Program-made: the position numbers and the translations under genes
In this document: positions 729-19,647 of the stretch, one piece after another
Layout of the letters: every line of letters begins with the position of its first letter
How positions within the stretch are numbered: position 1 is the first letter of the stretch
NCBI GenBank assembly: GCA_009838645.1
Contig: VXRC01000024.1
Span: 18,494-82,493 of the forward strand
Length of the DNA stretch: 64,000 nt
Direction: 5' to 3'
Source: Gemmatimonadota bacterium
GTDB lineage: Bacteria; JAAXHH01
Notes under the pieces: model-generated
The model's input: only the letters and a program-made list of their open reading frames with translations
Told to the model about the DNA's origin: nothing
Database searches by the model: none

Positions 729-1805
729 ATGAGCGGTATTTGGACGAAGATCGATGGTAAATGGCGAGCTGCTTCTTCAAGGGATTTCGAACGCGAGAAA
801 GAACTTCATGACCTTGTTGAGGAGAACATTGGAATGTTACCCTTAGCTGGTTCTCCTCGTCTTTTTGTGCTTGGTCGAGAAGTGCAGCTGGGTAGTGGAT
901 ATGCCGATTTGTTGGCGGTAGAGGCATCCGGTCGCCCAGTCATTGCCGAAGTAAAGCTTGCCAGGAGTTCTGAAGCCAAACGGGCGATTGTGGCGCAGGT
1001 GATTTCGTATGCGGCGTTTCTTCAGGGATTCGATGTCGAATCTCTGGCAAAAGGGCCATTGAGCAAATCGCTGTCTGACCGGGAACAAGATTCTATTCTA
1101 GGCATGGTAATGACACAGGACCAGGAAGATGAGATTGACTCCGATACTTTTGAGACTTCGCTGCAGGAGTATCTGACCAACGGCATGTTCAGGCTCGTAC
1201 TTATAATGGACGATTCGTCTGAAGAATTGGAACGTGTAATCGCATATCTCGATTCCGTTACGAAGCAGTCACTTACTATAGATCTAATTACATTCCGGAT
1301 TTACTACGTAAATGGTACGGAAGTCGCAATGCCGCAACGAATATCACCAGATCTCAGTTTGACGTCGGATTCTGTGAGTGGGCTGTCAACTAAGAGAGCA
1401 TCTAAAGCAAGAAAGTCTGATGGTCCAGACGCTTTTATTGCTTCGTTTTCTGATATCGAAGGTGAAATTCGAGAGGTGTTTAATCAGCTTGTGGATTGGG
1501 CGATAGAGATTGAGAAAATCCAGGGAGTAAACCTGTATACGGCTACAGGTGTGAATAAAAGCAGATTTACGCTACTGCCTAGACTTGCAACGGAAAATGC
1601 TGGACTCATCACGATCTGGAACGATAACAAAAAACCATACATTTCGTTTTGGCGTGGAGTTTTTGAGAGGCGAGCACCAAACTCGATTGAAGCAGTGGAA
1701 AAAGCAGCGGGCTTAAAAATCGGCCATGGCAATGTCGTTAATGAAATCTCATCAGCTCTATTGGATGCATTGAAATCAGCATACTTAGAGGCAACAAAAT
1801 CTTAG
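729..1805 (+). CDS. PD-(D/E)xK nuclease-fold protein: NucS/DUF91-like N-terminal domain (GYADLLAVEASGRPVIAEVKLARSSEAKRAIVAQVISYA) plus a ~250-aa uncharacterized C-terminal region
   Basis: 1077-nt ORF with an AGGAG RBS (719-723) before the ATG. The N-terminal ~100 aa match the D...E-x-K core pattern of the NucS C-domain/DUF91. The gene and its flank (600-1810) are ~45% GC against a ~65% backbone. Confidence 0.55.
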   Translation: MSGIWTKIDGKWRAASSRDFEREKELHDLVEENIGMLPLAGSPRLFVLGREVQLGSGYADLLAVEASGRPVIAEVKLARSSEAKRAIVAQVISYAAFLQGFDVESLAKGPLSKSLSDREQDSILGMVMTQDQEDEIDSDTFETSLQEYLTNGMFRLVLIMDDSSEELERVIAYLDSVTKQSLTIDLITFRIYYVNGTEVAMPQRISPDLSLTSDSVSGLSTKRASKARKSDGPDAFIASFSDIEGEIREVFNQLVDWAIEIEKIQGVNLYTATGVNKSRFTLLPRLATENAGLITIWNDNKKPYISFWRGVFERRAPNSIEAVEKAAGLKIGHGNVVNEISSALLDALKSAYLEATKS

Positions 1806-12325: not shown

Positions 12326-12808
12326 ATGACCATGCACGACGACATCGATCCAGCCCTGGATCTCGTCCTTGAGCGCCACATCCCGGACGTCACGCCCGCC
12401 CAGCTATGGCGAGCCTGGACCGAGCCCGAGGCGTTAAAGCGATGGTTCACGCCGAAGCCGTGGGAGACGACGGCCTGTGAAATCGATCTGCGGCCCGGCG
12501 GCGCCTTCGGCACGACGATGCGCTCACCCGAAGGCGAAGAGGTATCGGGCACAGGGTGCTATCTGGAGATCGTCGAGCACCGGAGGCTCGTATGGACCGA
12601 TGCACTGGAGCCAGGCTATCGTCCGGGTGCGTCACCATTCATGACGGCCATCATCACGATGGCGCCCGAAGGCGACGGTACGCGCTATCGTGCGCTTGTA
12701 CGGCATCACGACGAAGCCGCACGCCAAAAGCACGAGGAAATGGGGTTTTTTACAGGCTGGGGCACGGCACTCGATCAACTCGTTGAGCACGCGCGGAAAC
12801 TTGACTGA
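12326..12808 (+). CDS. SRPBCC (AHSA1/polyketide-cyclase-like) domain protein
   Basis: ~160 aa, pattern typical of Activator-of-Hsp90-ATPase-homolog/SRPBCC proteins. Start at the ATG at 12326 within ORF 12269..12808. Confidence 0.45.
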   Translation: MTMHDDIDPALDLVLERHIPDVTPAQLWRAWTEPEALKRWFTPKPWETTACEIDLRPGGAFGTTMRSPEGEEVSGTGCYLEIVEHRRLVWTDALEPGYRPGASPFMTAIITMAPEGDGTRYRALVRHHDEAARQKHEEMGFFTGWGTALDQLVEHARKLD

Positions 12809-12834
12809 CGAGGTCTCCAGGCCAGGATCCGTAT

Positions 12835-13626
12835 CTACAGGGCGATGATCCTCCGGATGCGCTCGGCGGTTTCCCGCATGTTGTCGTCGTCGCCGCCGAC
12901 CTCGCTCACCAGGGCTCCGTCGAAACTGATGCCGCGCAGTTCGGTCATGACCGCAGGCCAGTCCGTGTCGCCATCCATCAGCTGGACCCAGGCGCCTTCC
13001 CCGCGCAGGAAGTCCTTCACGTGCACCTTGAAGATCCGGCGGCCCAGTTCCTTGATCCACATGTCGGGGTAGCCGTAGAGGATCATGTTGGCCGTGTCCA
13101 GGTAGATCCCGACGGCGGGCGACCCGACCTCGTCGACGAGCTGGCGGGCTTCCCGGGGACTCAGCATGAACTGGTTCCACACGTTCTCGATGCCGATCCG
13201 TGTGCCGCGACGTTCCGCCTCGGGCGCGAGATCACGCAGGGCGTCGCGGAAGTTGTCCCAGGTCGTCCCGTAGGAGCTCGCCGGATCGAGCGCTCCGGGA
13301 TGCAGAAGGAGGGCGTCCACCCCCAGGATCTCGGCGATTTCGAAACCGCGCTTGAGGATGGCAACCCGCTTCGCCCGTTCTTCCGCGGACGGCGATAGCA
13401 GGGATCCGGCATCGCCGCGGATGGCGATCATGGAACTCAGTTCGAGGCCGTGGTTCCTGCAGGCCTCCCCCACGGCGGCGATCTCCGGGGTCGAGGCGTC
13501 AATGTTCGGGAAACCGCTGTCGGAGAAAACCAGTTCGATGGCCTCGTAGCCCAGGTTTCGGGCCTTTGAGAGATCCGCTTCGAGATCCTGGCGGGCGAGA
13601 CAGAGTTGCGTGATGCCTGGCTTCAT
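12835..13626 (-). CDS. Sugar phosphate isomerase/epimerase (xylose-isomerase-like TIM barrel)
   Basis: The product begins MKPGITQLCL... and has family features (IGIENVWNQF, GIYLDTANM). An alternative start lies at 13659. Confidence 0.6.
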   Translation of the reverse strand: MKPGITQLCLARQDLEADLSKARNLGYEAIELVFSDSGFPNIDASTPEIAAVGEACRNHGLELSSMIAIRGDAGSLLSPSAEERAKRVAILKRGFEIAEILGVDALLLHPGALDPASSYGTTWDNFRDALRDLAPEAERRGTRIGIENVWNQFMLSPREARQLVDEVGSPAVGIYLDTANMILYGYPDMWIKELGRRIFKVHVKDFLRGEGAWVQLMDGDTDWPAVMTELRGISFDGALVSEVGGDDDNMRETAERIRRIIAL

Positions 13627-13775
13627 GGGGAGGCGGCTCCTTGGAATCGTTGCGGGCACATGAAATCGTTGCGGACGGCGGTAATTTTGAAGTTAACAGT
13701 CGTGTCGGGGTAGGTTATATTATAAGTAACAAAACGCAAGCGAATTGCGCTGCATCTGAAACGAGGAGGAAGACC

Positions 13776-14351
13776 ATGATTCATACACTGGCGCGGTGGT
13801 GCTTCGCCCTGGCCCTGGTCGGCCTGGTGGCGGAGTCCGCCGACGCGCAACCCCGTAACTTGGCGCCGAGGCTGAGTGAGGCCGCACCGGAGTTCAGCCT
13901 GCAGGACGTCAACGGCGAAACCGTCAACTTCGCCGATTACAAGGGCAGCAAGAACCTGCTTGTGGTCGTCGACCGCGGCTGGATAGGCTACTGGTGACCC
14001 CTTTGCTTACGGCAACTGGGGCAGTTGCAATCCGATTACGAACGCATAGCAGCACTCGACACCGAATTACTCTTCATCAATCCCGAAGACCTCGACCAGA
14101 CCAGGGACTTCGTCGCCAAATCGAAAGTCACGCGGGAAGCGCTTTCCTTCCGCGTTCTCGCCGACCCGGATCGGGCCATTCCCACCAAGTTCAAGATCCA
14201 GAAAGCGACCGACAAGGGGACGGAAGTCATTCCCACGGCCTTCATCATCGACAAGGAAGGCGTCCTTCGGTTCAAGTACGTGGGTTCGGATCCCTTCGAC
14301 CGGCCGTCGACAGACAGCCTGGTGGAGATCCTGGATATGATCGAAGGGTAG
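13776..14351 (+). CDS. Secreted thioredoxin-fold redoxin (AhpC/TSA, TlpA/ResA-like); putative selenoprotein with in-frame UGA (13995-13997) at the first position of W-C-P-x-C (W-U-P-L-C)
   Basis: ORFs 13641..13997 and 14025..14351 share one frame and are separated only by TGA. The read-through product has a signal peptide (MIHTLARWCFALALVGLVAESADA) and redoxin motifs (APEFSLQDVNGETVNFADYKG...IPTAFIIDKEGVL...YVG). The RBS GAGGAGG precedes the ATG at 13776. Confidence 0.55.
14012..14028 (+). promoter_or_regulatory. Putative bacterial SECIS-like hairpin (GCAACUG-GGG-CAGUUGC), 15 nt downstream of the in-frame UGA
   Basis: Perfect 7-bp inverted repeat with a G-rich apical loop, read directly from the sequence. 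The spacing from the UGA is in the bacterial SECIS range. Confidence 0.35.
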
Positions 14352-14414
14352 TAAGTCGGTTTTGAAGTCGAGATGAAGTTTGATTGAGGTAGAGTTTACG
14401 AAGCGAAGTTGAAG

Positions 14415-14834
14415 TCAGGACACCAGATTCCTGATCTCGTCGGACACGAATTCGACCAGGATCTGGTTTTCCAGCCAGACTTCGTAGAGCGGTCCGCCCA
14501 GCCTCGGCCGAAAGCGGTGGTGAAGTCCATGCGATTCCGCCACCGCTTTCAAATGGTCGAGGCTTTGCTGCGTTTCAAGCAGAAAATGGGTCGAATTGAA
14601 ATTCTGTACCTCTTCAACCGGTCTGAATTCCGCGGCGTGTTCCCCGGGGCAGAGCAGGTAGATGTTCGGGATAAATTCGATCATCTCACCCGACTGACAG
14701 TCCCAAGCGCATACCCAGGCACCTTCCATGGTCCTCGATGTGAATGGATATACTGATCCATACGTCAATTCTGCCAGAACCCTCGCTGCCCTTTCGGGTT
14801 TTGATGCCGTAATGGAAAGGTGTTTGATCTTCAT
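14415..14834 (-). CDS. VOC (glyoxalase/bleomycin-resistance/dioxygenase) family protein
   Basis: 139 aa with a VOC-like N-terminus (MKIKHLSITASKPERAARVLAEL). Lies in a lower-GC block. Confidence 0.4.
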   Translation of the reverse strand: MKIKHLSITASKPERAARVLAELTYGSVYPFTSRTMEGAWVCAWDCQSGEMIEFIPNIYLLCPGEHAAEFRPVEEVQNFNSTHFLLETQQSLDHLKAVAESHGLHHRFRPRLGGPLYEVWLENQILVEFVSDEIRNLVS

Positions 14835-14890
14835 ATGGCGATGCGACTCTATATGGGTGTGTAATCTGCAGAACGCTCACAAGCGTTGCG

Positions 14891-15214
14891 TTATTCACGC
14901 GGTTCAGTATGGATAAGAAAGACCTTCGTTTCAAATCCTCCTCTTTTCTCCTTCTTCGCGTTTCTCATTTTCTCGAGTTGTATCGGATCAATTCCCATTC
15001 GAGACGCAATAGCGTATACCACCTCCAGGATATCAACTAATTCCTCGGCGTCATTGGAAGTGTTGAATTCCCCGACTTCCTCCACAAGTTTGCGTCTGAG
15101 TTCATGAATATACTCGGCCCTGTCGAGAACTCGGGTCGTCGGACGATCGCCCGCAGCAGCAATGATATCGGGAATCCTGTCCCGCACAAGCTTGTTGTGG
15201 TCAACTCGTTTCAT
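14891..15214 (-). CDS. MazG-like nucleoside triphosphate pyrophosphohydrolase (PRA-PH fold)
   Basis: MKRVDHNKLVRDRIPDII...EELVDILEVVYAIA, characteristic of small all-alpha NTP-PPases. GGAAGG lies 8-13 nt upstream of the ATG at 15212-15214. Confidence 0.5.
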   Translation of the reverse strand: MKRVDHNKLVRDRIPDIIAAAGDRPTTRVLDRAEYIHELRRKLVEEVGEFNTSNDAEELVDILEVVYAIASRMGIDPIQLEKMRNAKKEKRGGFETKVFLIHTEPRE

Positions 15215-15239
15215 TGCTGCACCTTCCACGGCGTAATTG

Positions 15240-15623
15240 TCAAAACCGAACCTGGCCTGCAGGTGTCACGTCTGCGAAGTCACCGAGGATATCATTATAG
15301 TGAGCGATAATCTGCTCTGCTGTAAGTACATCGGAATCGAAAGTACTGTGTCCATCCTTGACTAGCGTTATCGAATATCCTGCAATACGAGCATGATGGC
15401 AGGTCGTGCTGATACAGTTCTCGGTTTGAACGCCTGTAATGAATAACCTGCCGATCTCCTTTTCATTCAAAATAGATGCTAACTGAGCTTCGCAAAACGC
15501 ATCCGGAGTTCGTTTCTGAACGACGATATCTCCCTTCTGCGGGGAAACCCGTTCGTGTATATGCCATCCTGGTGAATCCGTCCGATCCGGGTCGCCCGGT
15601 TTTCCGTTGTGTACGTTGCCCAA
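15240..15623 (-). pseudogene. Isochorismatase-family hydrolase fragment (C-terminal ~2/3 only; the N-terminal catalytic Asp region is missing)
   Basis: WHIHERVSPQKGDIVVQKRTPDAF...LFITGVQTENCISTTCHHARIAGYSITLVKDGHST matches the C-terminal part of YcaC-like isochorismatases. The upstream gene ends 9 nt away, leaving no room for the N-terminal ~60 aa. Confidence 0.4.
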
Positions 15624-15632
15624 TGTCGTTTC

Positions 15633-16559
15633 CTATATGCATTCCACGATGCGGTCTTCAATCTCAGCCAGCTCTTCGAATTGCCCTACCGTGCTTTTCC
15701 AGTCTTCCTGCGTGGCATAGTACTGCGCCAGTCCGTATGACTCGGCTTTTTTGACCAACCATTCCGCGGTTTCAGTTTGGTCTGCCGACTTCATGAAATC
15801 GGCCGCATCGAGGCAACGACGGGCGCCGATCGGCAGGACGAAGTGGACCAGCATGGCCGCGAATCCTTTGGGCGGTATACCGCGGATCACCTCGGCGGCC
15901 ATCCGGAACGCCTGCGAACCTCCAAAAAAGACCGGACCGGAGGGGGCGGCATGAATCAGTTCTCGTGCGTTTTCCAGCGTAGCCTTCAGCATGTCTTCGG
16001 TCGATACCTGACGGTCTTCCCGGAAATCGCCGCGCAGGGTGTATGCACTTGTTGCGTAGCCGAGATCAGTGGCATTCCACGCACGCAAAAGGTCATCGAC
16101 CGGCAGTACCGCGAATGGATAGAATTGCGGGTCATGCACCTGTACACGGTCGCCTTCGAGTTTCAGAGCTATAATGAAATGGTCTCCGCCACGTTTCAGC
16201 CGGTGATTCGGGTCATAGGGCAGGAAACCCAGGTCCAGGGGACCAAGCAGTACGGGGCCGTTCTTCAGGTTAGCTTTTAATGCTTCAAGAGCCGATTCAA
16301 CATCGTCACCCTCCCACTGTGTACACGTCCAACCCAGAATGCTGAGCGCACGGGACATCCCGCTGTTAGGATTCAGGTCGGCGTGGCTAGGGAAGAACAG
16401 TGGAGTATCAAACTGCAGGAACAGCTCGCCGAACGGCATACCCGTCATGCATTCCAACAGGCCGGGTTCCGGAAGATCGGCCATGCCGGCGTGCTGCAGA
16501 CACATGTGAAGGCTGTTGCTGTAACAGTAATGGCTGTTCCCGGTATAAGCGATGTGCAT
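15633..16559 (-). CDS. Papain-like fold protein, BtrH_N/DUF4872-like (tentative)
   Basis: 308 aa with an N-terminal Cys-containing motif (HYCYSNSLHMCL) reminiscent of BtrH N-terminal/peptidase-C39-like domains. Assignment by recollection only. Confidence 0.35.
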   Translation of the reverse strand: MHIAYTGNSHYCYSNSLHMCLQHAGMADLPEPGLLECMTGMPFGELFLQFDTPLFFPSHADLNPNSGMSRALSILGWTCTQWEGDDVESALEALKANLKNGPVLLGPLDLGFLPYDPNHRLKRGGDHFIIALKLEGDRVQVHDPQFYPFAVLPVDDLLRAWNATDLGYATSAYTLRGDFREDRQVSTEDMLKATLENARELIHAAPSGPVFFGGSQAFRMAAEVIRGIPPKGFAAMLVHFVLPIGARRCLDAADFMKSADQTETAEWLVKKAESYGLAQYYATQEDWKSTVGQFEELAEIEDRIVECI

Positions 16560-16705
16560 TTGCTGATCCTCTCGTCAAATATCGCAATGGATCGAATAAA
16601 CCCTCATTGTTTAAATGGGATTCATCCAGACCAATATACTATATATTTGTTTAGTATATGTCAAGAAATACGAGAGGAAACTTCCAGGTTTTTGCAGAAA
16701 AACAT

Positions 16706-17698
16706 TCAGGGTATTCCGAGCGTCCTACCGATCCTGTCCACCACGTCGTCGATCCTTTCCAGGTACCGCATCGCCGCCTTGTAGGTGGGCATGAGTACCC
16801 GCTGCTCATCCACCTCGCCATCCAGGTACTGGTCGGCCATCCAGAGATAGATGGAGAGTTCGTAGATCGTCCATTCAGGATCTTTCGGGGTGTTGCCGTA
16901 TCCTTCATAGAAAGCGGCCGGTGTGGGGCCGATCGGCTTCAACCGGAAGATCTCCAGCCTGGCCAGGTCCCAGGTCGGATCGCCGGACCAGGCGTACTCC
17001 CAGTCGAGCCAGGCGGAACACCTCCAGTGGCCGGTTTCCTCGTGAACCAGCACGTTCCAGGGATGGGGATCGTTGTGCAGCAGGACCAGGGGTCTTTCGT
17101 TCAGCAGGGGTACCGTTTGCTTCAGTACCCGCTTCATCGACGACAGTTCGAAACGAAGTCCCGGGTCCCGCTTCAGCAGGCTCTCCGCATGCCGCACGGC
17201 CTGGTGGTAGTGAAAGTCACCCCAGGTTCCTTCGTCAAAAGGCTGAATGCGTTCTCCGACGATCAATCCCGGGCAGCGATCGGAAAGCTGGATGGCGTGC
17301 ACTTTTCGTAACGCGGCGCCGACAGCCCGCCAGGCCTGAGCGCGCTGTCCATCGGTCAGGTTATCGACAACGTTCCCCAGAAGGGATCCGGGTTTGAATT
17401 CCATCAGCACGGCGCATCCGTCTTCATCATCGTGATGCGCGACAATGGCCGGCACGGGTACGCCATGCTTCGATAACAAATCGTGCAAATAAAGTTCTTT
17501 TTCGACCCTTTGCAGGTCGTCATCTGTAGCGTAAGGCCATTCGTATTCGCGGAGGATGTAGCGTGTGTCGTCCCGGAGTTTTACGAGGGACGTTCGATTG
17601 GTCACGCCGGTATTGAGCGGCTCGACAGATCGGATGGGATTACGGCTTTGCCCGGCTTCGGCGAGTAGTCTTGGAAGGAATGCAGGAAGCTGGGACAT
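16706..17698 (-). CDS. Aminoglycoside phosphotransferase (APH)/choline-kinase-family small-molecule kinase
   Basis: Catalytic-loop and DFG-like motifs (LLHNDPHPWNVLV, DWEYAWSGDPTWDLA) typical of the APH fold. Confidence 0.65.
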   Translation of the reverse strand: MSQLPAFLPRLLAEAGQSRNPIRSVEPLNTGVTNRTSLVKLRDDTRYILREYEWPYATDDDLQRVEKELYLHDLLSKHGVPVPAIVAHHDDEDGCAVLMEFKPGSLLGNVVDNLTDGQRAQAWRAVGAALRKVHAIQLSDRCPGLIVGERIQPFDEGTWGDFHYHQAVRHAESLLKRDPGLRFELSSMKRVLKQTVPLLNERPLVLLHNDPHPWNVLVHEETGHWRCSAWLDWEYAWSGDPTWDLARLEIFRLKPIGPTPAAFYEGYGNTPKDPEWTIYELSIYLWMADQYLDGEVDEQRVLMPTYKAAMRYLERIDDVVDRIGRTLGIP

Positions 17699-17713
17699 GA
17701 GGTATGCACGCTT

Positions 17714-18019
17714 TCAGTTCGATCGGTTTAGCACGCGTACTTCAGTCTTCAATCGTTCTCCCAGCCGATCCCTTTGCAACTCCAGGTCATAGTGGGTCTG
17801 CAGATTCAGCCAGAATCGATCCGTAGTTCCGAAATAGCGAGCCAGTCGTAAAGCGGTGTCGGCCGAAATGGCGCGTTTGCCGTGCACGATCTCGTTTATG
17901 CGGCGCGGGGGAACTGAAATATCCACGGCAACACGGTACTGACTCAGACCTAGTGGTTCGAGAAACTCTTCCTTGAGGATCTCTCCGGGATGAATCGGAG
18001 GCATAATAGCAGCAGGCAT
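17714..18019 (-). CDS. higA: HigA-family antitoxin-like XRE HTH protein (no HigB partner present)
   Basis: MPAAIMPPIHPGEILKEEFLEPLGLSQYRVAVDISVPPRRINEIVHGKRAISADTALRLARYFGTTDRFWLNLQTHYDLE is a textbook HigA/VapI N-terminus. AGGAG lies 8 nt upstream of the ATG at 18017-18019. The APH gene starts 16 nt downstream. Confidence 0.7.
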   Translation of the reverse strand: MPAAIMPPIHPGEILKEEFLEPLGLSQYRVAVDISVPPRRINEIVHGKRAISADTALRLARYFGTTDRFWLNLQTHYDLELQRDRLGERLKTEVRVLNRSN

Positions 18020-18187
18020 GTGAAACTCCTGGTGGTAGTCTACAAGTTCGTCCACAAAAACGGTCTTTGAACGATAGGATCATGCCAATACTATAGTAAC
18101 GTTATGTGAATCCTTTAAACACTGTTTCCTCATCGGTCCAGACGCCAACACAACAGCCATCTGGTTTATATCCGGGGACACCACGCC

Positions 18188-19342
<1,155 letters not shown>

Positions 19343-19428: not shown

Positions 19429-19647
19429 TCAATCAAGGGCGAGCGACTTCTCCACCTCATCTGGTACGGATATTGTGACGAACCTGGCCGCAGGATAGAG
19501 ATAGTCCTCTCCACTCTCGTCAATAACCCGGAGGTCGCCATCGTCCCTCGCCGCTTCATCACGGACAACCCGGTAAATCTTGTGTTTTTCCAATGATGCG
19601 GTGTAGTCCGTGTTGTCGATGCAAACGACGTAGAAACCAGCGTTCAT
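19429..19647 (-). CDS. Hypothetical 72-aa protein, translationally coupled to nhaA
   Basis: The ATG at 19645-19647 sits 2 nt after the nhaA stop (TGAGATG). No recognizable domain. Confidence 0.35.
   Translation of the reverse strand: MNAGFYVVCIDNTDYTASLEKHKIYRVVRDEAARDDGDLRVIDESGEDYLYPAARFVTISVPDEVEKSLALD

Follow-up and report, generated by a model that had tools for sequence, protein, structure and literature searches.

A shared low-GC islet in 19 related species, probably a decaying higBA module beside independent accessory enzymes

Contig VXRC01000024.1 of a Gemmatimonadota bacterium carries a run of six minus-strand genes that stand out from their surroundings by their low GC content. 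They were analysed within a stretch of 64,000 nucleotides of this contig, called the window here. The genes encode a HigA antitoxin, a kinase, a papain-like protein, a broken isochorismatase, a MazG-like pyrophosphohydrolase and a VOC-fold protein. An initial annotation, made from the sequence of the window, took them for an acquired cassette that modifies or detoxifies a small molecule. Probably they form a variable islet, vertically inherited and compositionally distinct, in which a decaying higBA toxin-antitoxin module lies beside accessory enzymes that are independent of one another. Two of the islet genes are pseudogenes in this genome. All known genomes of the lineage are metagenome-assembled (MAGs), with Gemmatimonadetes or Latescibacterota as the depositors' label.

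Relatives were found by scanning one genome per species, and one further species was added by look-up. This gave 19 species-level loci (L-numbers such as L001 label loci of related or homologous contigs). None of the 19 related species has an empty site; it lies between a gene for a pyridoxal phosphate (PLP) enzyme and a redoxin gene. In relatives, the flanks of the kinase locus hold GFO, NhaA and PLP-enzyme genes on one side and redoxin, AP_endonuc_2 and SLT_2 genes on the other. The kinase itself is found, at 63-89% identity, in about 20 MAGs whose deposited names are Gemmatimonadetes, Latescibacterota or "bacterium". MAG contigs of GCA_009842775.1 and GCA_009845765.1 and an ENA scaffold labelled ENGE20 encode proteins that are identical to those of the window. 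Some names of samples and bins, among them ENGE20 and IRC1, hint that the source may be a marine sponge.

Neighbour-joining (NJ) trees were built on MAFFT alignments, one of the flanking genes and one of higA together with the kinase gene. Both trees show the same three clades, with the exception of L017. Because the same site is filled in relatives and the trees broadly match, the locus appears to be ancestral to the lineage and not a recent arrival. Low GC at third codon positions (GC3) is a shared trait as well: the mean for each islet gene is 0.49-0.65, against 0.71-0.83 in the flanks, and it is low in every species. Thus, with the site filled in 19 species, the trees broadly in agreement and GC3 low everywhere, any acquisition would predate the lineage.

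Although the site is shared, the genes in it differ from species to species. Those for the kinase, the HIT hydrolase, the BtrH_N protein, isochorismatase with MazG, and the VOC protein may each be whole, missing or damaged, in differing combinations (counts in Table 1), and they appear to have been gained or lost independently. Copies that remain intact have ratios of nonsynonymous to synonymous substitution (dN/dS) of 0.07-0.20, against 0.09-0.20 in the flanking genes, and are under purifying selection. Across the lineage, the islet would comprise a higBA module and, after it, small enzymes with separate functions: a kinase of the APH fold, a hydrolase of the HIT family, a Cys-His-Asp transacylase of the CtaG/BtrH fold, an isochorismatase hydrolase with MazG, an S-adenosylmethionine (SAM) methyltransferase and a VOC metalloenzyme. 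Different species would have lost different members through deletion or frameshift. In the present genome, higB and the isochorismatase gene have become pseudogenes. The genes for HigA, the kinase, the transacylase, MazG and the VOC protein remain whole, and selection would maintain them.

All six open reading frames (ORFs) listed in the initial annotation are present, from 14415 to 18019. They are co-oriented and tightly spaced. The GC anomaly is also real. Positions 14400-18060 have 53.6% GC, against 62.2% for the window; this is the lowest value among all 3.66-kb segments and lies about three standard deviations under the mean. Gene by gene, GC is 47.8-58.5%, and GC3 is 0.48-0.70, against 0.71-0.85 in neighbouring genes of the window. 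Two earlier figures need correction. The islet had been put at about 47-57% GC against a backbone of about 65%, where the backbone is about 62%; and its extent had been given as 14400-18060, where the feature reaches about 18119 once the higB remnant and its promoter are counted.

Table 1. Features of the islet and its boundaries in the window, with the number of related species in which each gene is intact
Feature	Position	Strand	Basis or state	Intact copies
higB pseudogene	18029..18083	-	head MILSFKDR from ATG 18083-18081; tail VDELVDYH 18055-18032	5/19
Promoter-like site of the former higBA operon (TTTAAA-18-TATAGT)	18090..18119	-	promoter scan; 12-locus alignment	
higA, intact orphan HigA antitoxin, XRE-type helix-turn-helix, 101 residues	17714..18019	-	TIGR02607	16/19
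APH-fold (protein-kinase-like) small-molecule kinase, 330 residues	16706..17698	-	PF01636	15/19; remainder frameshifted or with internal deletion
HIT hydrolase			between kinase and BtrH_N genes; absent from window	6/19
Sigma-70-like promoter, TTGACA-17-TAGTAT	16636..16664	-	promoter scan, 10/12 matches	
Predicted stand-alone papain-like transacylase or amidase, CtaG/CcbD/AziU3/BtrH fold, 308 residues	15633..16559	-	BtrH_N and YobF_C	11/19
Isochorismatase-family pseudogene	15240..15623	-	start codon deleted	5/19
MazG-like all-alpha NTP pyrophosphohydrolase, 107 residues	14891..15214	-	PF12643 below threshold, plus motif	7/19; only alongside isochorismatase gene, whole or broken
VOC-fold (glyoxalase/FosX/bleomycin-resistance superfamily) protein, 139 residues	14415..14834	-	structure model	9-10/19; fragments in 6-7
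SAM methyltransferase		-	absent from window	3/19
PLP enzyme gene (Cys/Met metabolism), left boundary, outside islet	18188..19342	+	PF01053, 325 bits; divergent	17/19
AhpC/TSA-type redoxin gene with in-frame TGA, right boundary, outside islet	13776..14351	+	convergent	

Several relatives carry additional genes at the site. HIT-family hydrolase genes (PF01230, HVHVHL motif) are found in L012 (9895-10327), L014 (11052-11480), L019 (11047-11478) and L029 (5377-5814), and a HIT gene occupies this interval in L015 and L029/L030 as well. In L010, a 6.6-kb insertion (12440-19053) with an IS1595 transposase and a DNA methylase-HNH fusion splits the isochorismatase gene. CoiA-like and DUF4238 genes lie on the PLP side in L011 (8756-9640) and L017 (8099-9130); the DUF4238 gene replaces the PLP gene. 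The site is an insertion hotspot in relatives.

The decay of the toxin-antitoxin module can be followed from species to species. HigA scores 112.4 bits against TIGR02607, for which the equivalog cut-off is 47.7. Copies in other species share 88-98% identity with that of the window, and the dN/dS of higA, 0.07, is the lowest among the genes tested. The real start of higA is the ATG at 18019; a GTG at 18055 belongs to the higB remnant. In L008, L016, L017, L021 and L026, an intact HigB of 92 residues (MIISFKDRETERVFRRE...VELVDYH) is encoded directly upstream of higA, and the HigB of L008 matches PF05015 end to end with 70 bits. No intact higBA module exists in the window, where an 8-codon head and an 8-codon tail are all that is left of higB. 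The frame breaks at a deletion junction after 18061, and the former TAG stop now reads CAG at 18031-18029.

The deletions in other species have different end points. L013 and L019 share one type of junction, of which L015 has a variant; L012 and L023 have an in-frame deletion; and L014 and L029 each have a junction of their own. L011 is without higB entirely, and L010, L018 and L020 are without both higB and higA. Since the junctions differ and intact higB survives in each of the three clades, higB was inactivated at least five times. Six copies have both ends legible (the window, L012, L013, L014, L023 and L029); each of them keeps the promoter, the opening codons of higB and its final eight codons directly ahead of higA.

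Part of the old control region is also kept. Relatives have in common a conserved operator/promoter block, TTGACGTTAATAACACGTAACGTTATTATAG, of which the window retains the downstream half only. In this half the palindrome TAACGTTA, at 18097-18104, stands immediately upstream of the TATAGT -10 hexamer. According to the 12-locus alignment, the window, L007 and L009 no longer have the upstream palindrome and the -35 hexamer of the block. Type II higBA modules are thus matched by the HigA equivalog assignment, by the toxin gene coming first, by palindromes that overlap the promoter and, in relatives, by a higB stop 9 nt ahead of the higA start. The window departs from them in its truncated toxin gene with a mutated stop and in its missing operator half and -35 hexamer. 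A further difference is the kinase gene that follows 15 nt after higA in nearly all species. The initial annotation had given this gap as 16 nt and had placed an XRE repressor at the head of the cassette. The helix-turn-helix protein is indeed of HigA type, but it is the antitoxin of higBA, whose toxin gene is intact in five relatives; a repressor that leads a cassette is not supported.

It is conceivable that, once higB had been excised repeatedly and independently, HigA was domesticated to regulate the APH-fold kinase and nothing else. Such a role would fit the five or more different deletions of higB, the status of higA as the most strongly constrained gene at the locus, and its place 15-17 nt upstream of the kinase gene in 16 of the 19 species. 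This is a tentative idea, and on balance it is doubted here.

The kinase belongs to PF01636, which it matches with 107.8 bits (gathering threshold 23.2). H208-x-D210-x4-N215 and D232-W-E234 are invariant in 26 homologues, with D232 as the metal-binding Asp, and dN/dS is 0.19. Its best relatives of solved structure are 3dxp and the kinase domain of ACAD11 (8v3v), at E values of 1e-6 to 1e-4. With such kinases it shares the PF01636 fold, the Brenner motif HxDxxxxN and the metal-binding Asp. It differs in that its similarity to solved or named kinases is only 1e-6 or weaker and, with respect to ACAD11, in being without an acyl-CoA dehydrogenase domain. Against the NCBIfam equivalogs for the aminoglycoside kinases APH(3') and APH(3''), it scores 15-26 bits where the cut-offs are 205-450, and it falls far under the cut-offs of the thiamine-kinase and homoserine-kinase equivalogs. 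Distant homologues sit among genes for GNATs, an aminoglycoside nucleotidyltransferase (ANT), a beta-lactamase and NUDIX proteins.

An alternative offered in the initial annotation was that the helix-turn-helix gene and the kinase gene form a pair like HipB and HipA, with the kinase as toxin. As in HipBA systems, such a gene adjoins a kinase gene; 16 of the 19 species have a gap of 15-17 nt, and the conservation of higA is unusually high, also in species that have lost higB. However, the kinase is of another fold family: its profile matches are to APH and Choline_kinase only, no HipA domain is found in it, and it has no match in PADLOC. For its part, the helix-turn-helix protein, as a HigA, already has a canonical partner in the same operon, namely HigB. 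The kinase gene also occurs without higA, in L010, L018 and L020, and is apparently intact in L010 and L018. Outside the lineage, HigA adjoined the kinase homologue in none of the three neighbourhoods read. A HipBA-like pair is therefore extremely improbable, and higA next to the kinase gene is better seen as the surviving part of the higBA module.

The second half of the islet begins with a spacer of 146 nt and 34% GC (16560-16705) upstream of the BtrH_N gene. The protein encoded by this gene scores 30.3 bits against PF14399, barely over the gathering threshold of 29.7, and PF27157 (YobF_C) is precomputed for it. Residues C12, D126-H127 and D143 are invariant in 31 homologues and provide a Cys-His-Asp triad. 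An AlphaFold2 model has a mean confidence (pLDDT) of 94.7, and the top Foldseek matches of the model are AziU3, CcbD and CtaG, with E values of 1e-9 to 1e-6, TM scores of 0.54-0.67 and about 340 alignment columns. CtaG is a papain-like, carrier-protein-dependent ligase of bipartite architecture with the triad Cys11/His128/Asp144, and BtrH and AsbE have the same fold (PMC12865890). The islet protein resembles CtaG, CcbD (LmbD), AziU3, BtrH and AsbE in its bipartite architecture and in a Cys12-His127-Asp143 triad that matches the triad positions of CtaG. It differs in being only 8-15% identical to these ligases and in belonging to a YobF_C-containing, stand-alone group, with no biosynthetic cluster nearby; in other phyla, the neighbours of this group are MerR/GyrI-like regulators or small genes of detoxification type.

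CtaG, CcbD, AziU3 and BtrH all belong to antibiotic or natural-product pathways. The islet might thus be the remnant of a cluster for natural-product biosynthesis or self-resistance around a ligase of this type. Kinases, HIT hydrolases, methyltransferases and isochorismatase-type hydrolases are common tailoring or resistance enzymes, which would fit such a cluster. However, Pfam lists for the window and its relatives contain no carrier protein, adenylation enzyme, nonribosomal peptide synthetase or polyketide synthase gene within 10 kb. In particular, no PP-binding, acyl carrier protein or peptidyl carrier protein gene is listed within 10 kb of the islet or at the loci of BtrH_N homologues. 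Homologues outside the lineage stand alone and not in biosynthetic clusters: in three of six loci they adjoin a MerR regulator, and the remaining ones lie among GNAT, VOC, Macro and MOSC genes. On Sinorhizobium megaplasmids they are annotated as "hypothetical protein" and adjoin a GNAT gene. A biosynthetic origin is thus very unlikely, and the BtrH_N protein is more easily placed among the independent accessory enzymes of the islet.

Three of the outside homologues share an arrangement of their own. In L031 (5054-6936), L033 (5119-6924) and L034 (5121-6927), the BtrH_N/YobF_C gene is directly downstream of a gene for a MerR regulator of 273-279 residues, and one of the three regulators carries a GyrI-like effector domain. 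This hints that MerR and BtrH_N/YobF_C may form a ligand-responsive pair of regulator and enzyme.

The BtrH_N gene and its spacer also stand out when close relatives are compared. MAG contig L001 is nearly identical to the window, and every gene compared between the two is 100% identical save for the BtrH_N gene (98.7%; 15633-16559 in the window, 11140-12063 in L001). Strain-level polymorphism is concentrated in this gene. Contigs of GCA_009845765.1 break in or next to the AT-rich spacer between the kinase and BtrH_N genes: L003 (VXYY01000007.1) ends just past the kinase gene, and L005 (VXYY01000028.1) begins 124 nt ahead of the BtrH_N gene. These breaks suggest strain heterogeneity or a drop in coverage.

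The isochorismatase gene provides the second example of decay in this genome. What remains covers positions 68-154 of the 175 positions of PF00857, and the Asp-Lys-Cys set of the family is incomplete. In a nucleotide alignment, a deletion of 171 bp is seen between CGTAC(A/G)CAAC microhomologies, with its junction near 15612. With it went the start codon and some 57 residues of the N-terminus, among them the catalytic Asp. At the same position, L007, L009, L011, L012 and L013 have a full-length protein of 181 residues, and that of L007 covers profile positions 1-154 with 120 bits. The gene had correctly been described as truncated, but not as one that was there before and was disrupted by the cassette: it is a member of the islet, with a deletion of its own, and it is whole in five relatives.

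The next gene encodes a MazG-like protein. It scores 22.3 bits against PF12643, under the gathering threshold of 27. The motif E45-E46-x2-E49 ... E58-x2-D61 (EExxE...ExxD) is invariant in 28 sequences, of which 13 match PF12643 at E <= 0.01 and eight match PRA-PH; dUTPase_2 is also matched. The family has about 6900 clusters. Relatives are found fused to NTPase_I-T, NUDIX, MarR and GNAT domains, and no isochorismatase partner was found among the fusions examined.

The last protein has no match among Pfam and NCBIfam profiles. Its AlphaFold2 model (pLDDT 93.4) matches only VOC structures in Foldseek, 51 of them at E <= 1e-3, with TM scores of 0.5-0.6. Among these are the integron cassette proteins 3ey7 and 3ey8, GLOD5, FosX and GlxI. 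H5, E53, H83 and E128 are invariant, as expected of metal ligands in this fold. For the kinase, BtrH_N, MazG and VOC proteins, single-sequence searches of the PDB gave nothing useful, and profile and fold searches were needed. With these, all four family assignments of the initial annotation hold: the APH-family kinase by its profile score, the papain-like BtrH_N protein by profile, fold match and invariant triad, the MazG-like nucleoside triphosphate (NTP) pyrophosphatase by family and motif despite its sub-threshold score, and the VOC protein by its structure model.

With its small accessory genes, all in one orientation and variable in content, and with a toxin-antitoxin module among them, the islet calls to mind the cassette arrays of integrons. 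Structurally, the VOC protein is matched best by integron cassette proteins of Vibrio, and the sole match of the MazG family to a solved structure, a weak one, is 2q73, presumably the integron-encoded iMazG. The islet differs from such arrays in that attC-like inverted repeats were not found, the gaps of 9-63 nt are too short, and none of the six ORFs encodes an integrase in profile searches. An integron cassette array was rejected.

The initial annotation also viewed the genes as one acquired cassette whose enzymes would jointly modify or detoxify a single antibiotic, for instance an aminoglycoside, under the leading XRE repressor. Co-orientation, tight spacing and low GC are in its favour. 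So are the enzyme folds, which have resistance-type relatives (APH; the VOC proteins FosX and bleomycin resistance; BtrH, which acts on an aminoglycoside), and the distant kinase homologues that cluster with ANT, GNAT and beta-lactamase genes. But the supposed repressor is of HigA type and is paired with a HigB of its own in relatives, the kinase is far from the aminoglycoside equivalogs, and over the 19 species the genes occur in almost every combination. Outside the lineage they keep different partners. The locus is ancestral by the evidence above, and it does not look like a recently acquired island, as the site is filled in all 19 related species; in the window, neither a tRNA gene nor flanking repeats were found. 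Among plasmid records, DNA-level similarity (60-80% identity) was found for higA only. A scan with PADLOC for defence systems returned nothing beyond a chance-level match for HigA, and the islet spacers had no match in Rfam at E <= 1.

A single acquired cassette is thus unlikely. The idea of accessory enzymes survives from it; the idea of one acquired unit is set aside by the site shared by 19 species and by independent loss. Conserved gene order in relatives without compositional bias had been named as what would argue against a cassette. The site is in fact conserved, but the bias persists and gene content varies, so that this argument holds by half.

If the genes are a variable islet with a decaying higBA module, as preferred here, two transcription units can be proposed. 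A consensus promoter scan gave five promoter-like sites, against 3.1 expected by chance, and two of these fit two transcription units. At the old higB promoter, orphan HigA may still bind the palindrome TAACGTTA that is left there and in this way set the transcription of higA and the kinase gene. For the genes from the transacylase to the VOC protein, a separate promoter within the AT-rich spacer would drive transcription. The kinase would phosphorylate a small molecule. The transacylase would carry out acyl transfer or amide hydrolysis via an acyl-enzyme at Cys12, MazG would remove non-canonical NTPs, and the VOC protein would catalyze a metal-dependent reaction. Each enzyme would act on its own substrate, with no single pathway joining them.

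Several points weigh against this explanation. The evidence for control of the kinase by HigA, and for the operon structure, consists of gene spacing and the consensus scan only. Isochorismatase and MazG genes always travel together, and the islet genes are co-oriented and tightly spaced; some functional coupling is thus possible. Low GC3 persists at a synonymous divergence (dS) of about 0.7-1.1 without explanation. Exchange within the lineage was tested by two NJ trees, and L017 is placed differently in each. Finally, the genomes are MAGs, and a few of the "frameshifts" could be assembly errors.

Other features of the window lie outside the islet. Between the NhaA and PLP genes, an ORF of 72 residues (19429-19647, minus strand) with 52.5% GC is found just beyond the islet. 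A profile search gave no family match for it. It is present in seven related species at 81-96% identity and absent from the others, and is another small variable gene. A second low-GC patch occurs at 1001-2000, which at 47% GC is the lowest 1-kb bin of the window; it coincides with an ORF of 358 residues (729-1805, plus strand).

The redoxin gene at the right boundary has an in-frame TGA at 13995-13997, within a W-U-P-L-C motif. This motif suggests that selenocysteine stands where the first redox Cys would be. All 17 related species examined conserve the TGA and the next 40 nt or so, a stretch that is nearly invariant even at synonymous sites. A hairpin, CCCCUUUGCUUACGGCAACUGGGG, follows at 13998-14021. 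Together, the hairpin and the conserved stretch are consistent with a bacterial selenocysteine insertion sequence (SECIS) element. Gene callers cut this gene in two, and NCBIfam gives a partial match to "SelL-related redox protein".

For specialists the findings on the islet are not very surprising, and the toxin-antitoxin decay is of modest interest. They call for caution against over-reading: what looked like a resistance cassette under a repressor is probably a set of unrelated accessory genes beside a dying toxin-antitoxin module. This bears on resistome-style annotation of symbiont MAGs.

The stand-alone YobF_C relatives of the CtaG/CcbD/BtrH fold are an enzyme group of uncharacterised chemistry whose members have no carrier gene nearby. 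The higBA remnants, for their part, give a replicated view of toxin-antitoxin decay, in which the toxin was lost many times over 19 species and the antitoxin was kept. Should the doubtful domestication of HigA prove true, the islet would show, in a series of natural replicates, how an antitoxin became a regulator.

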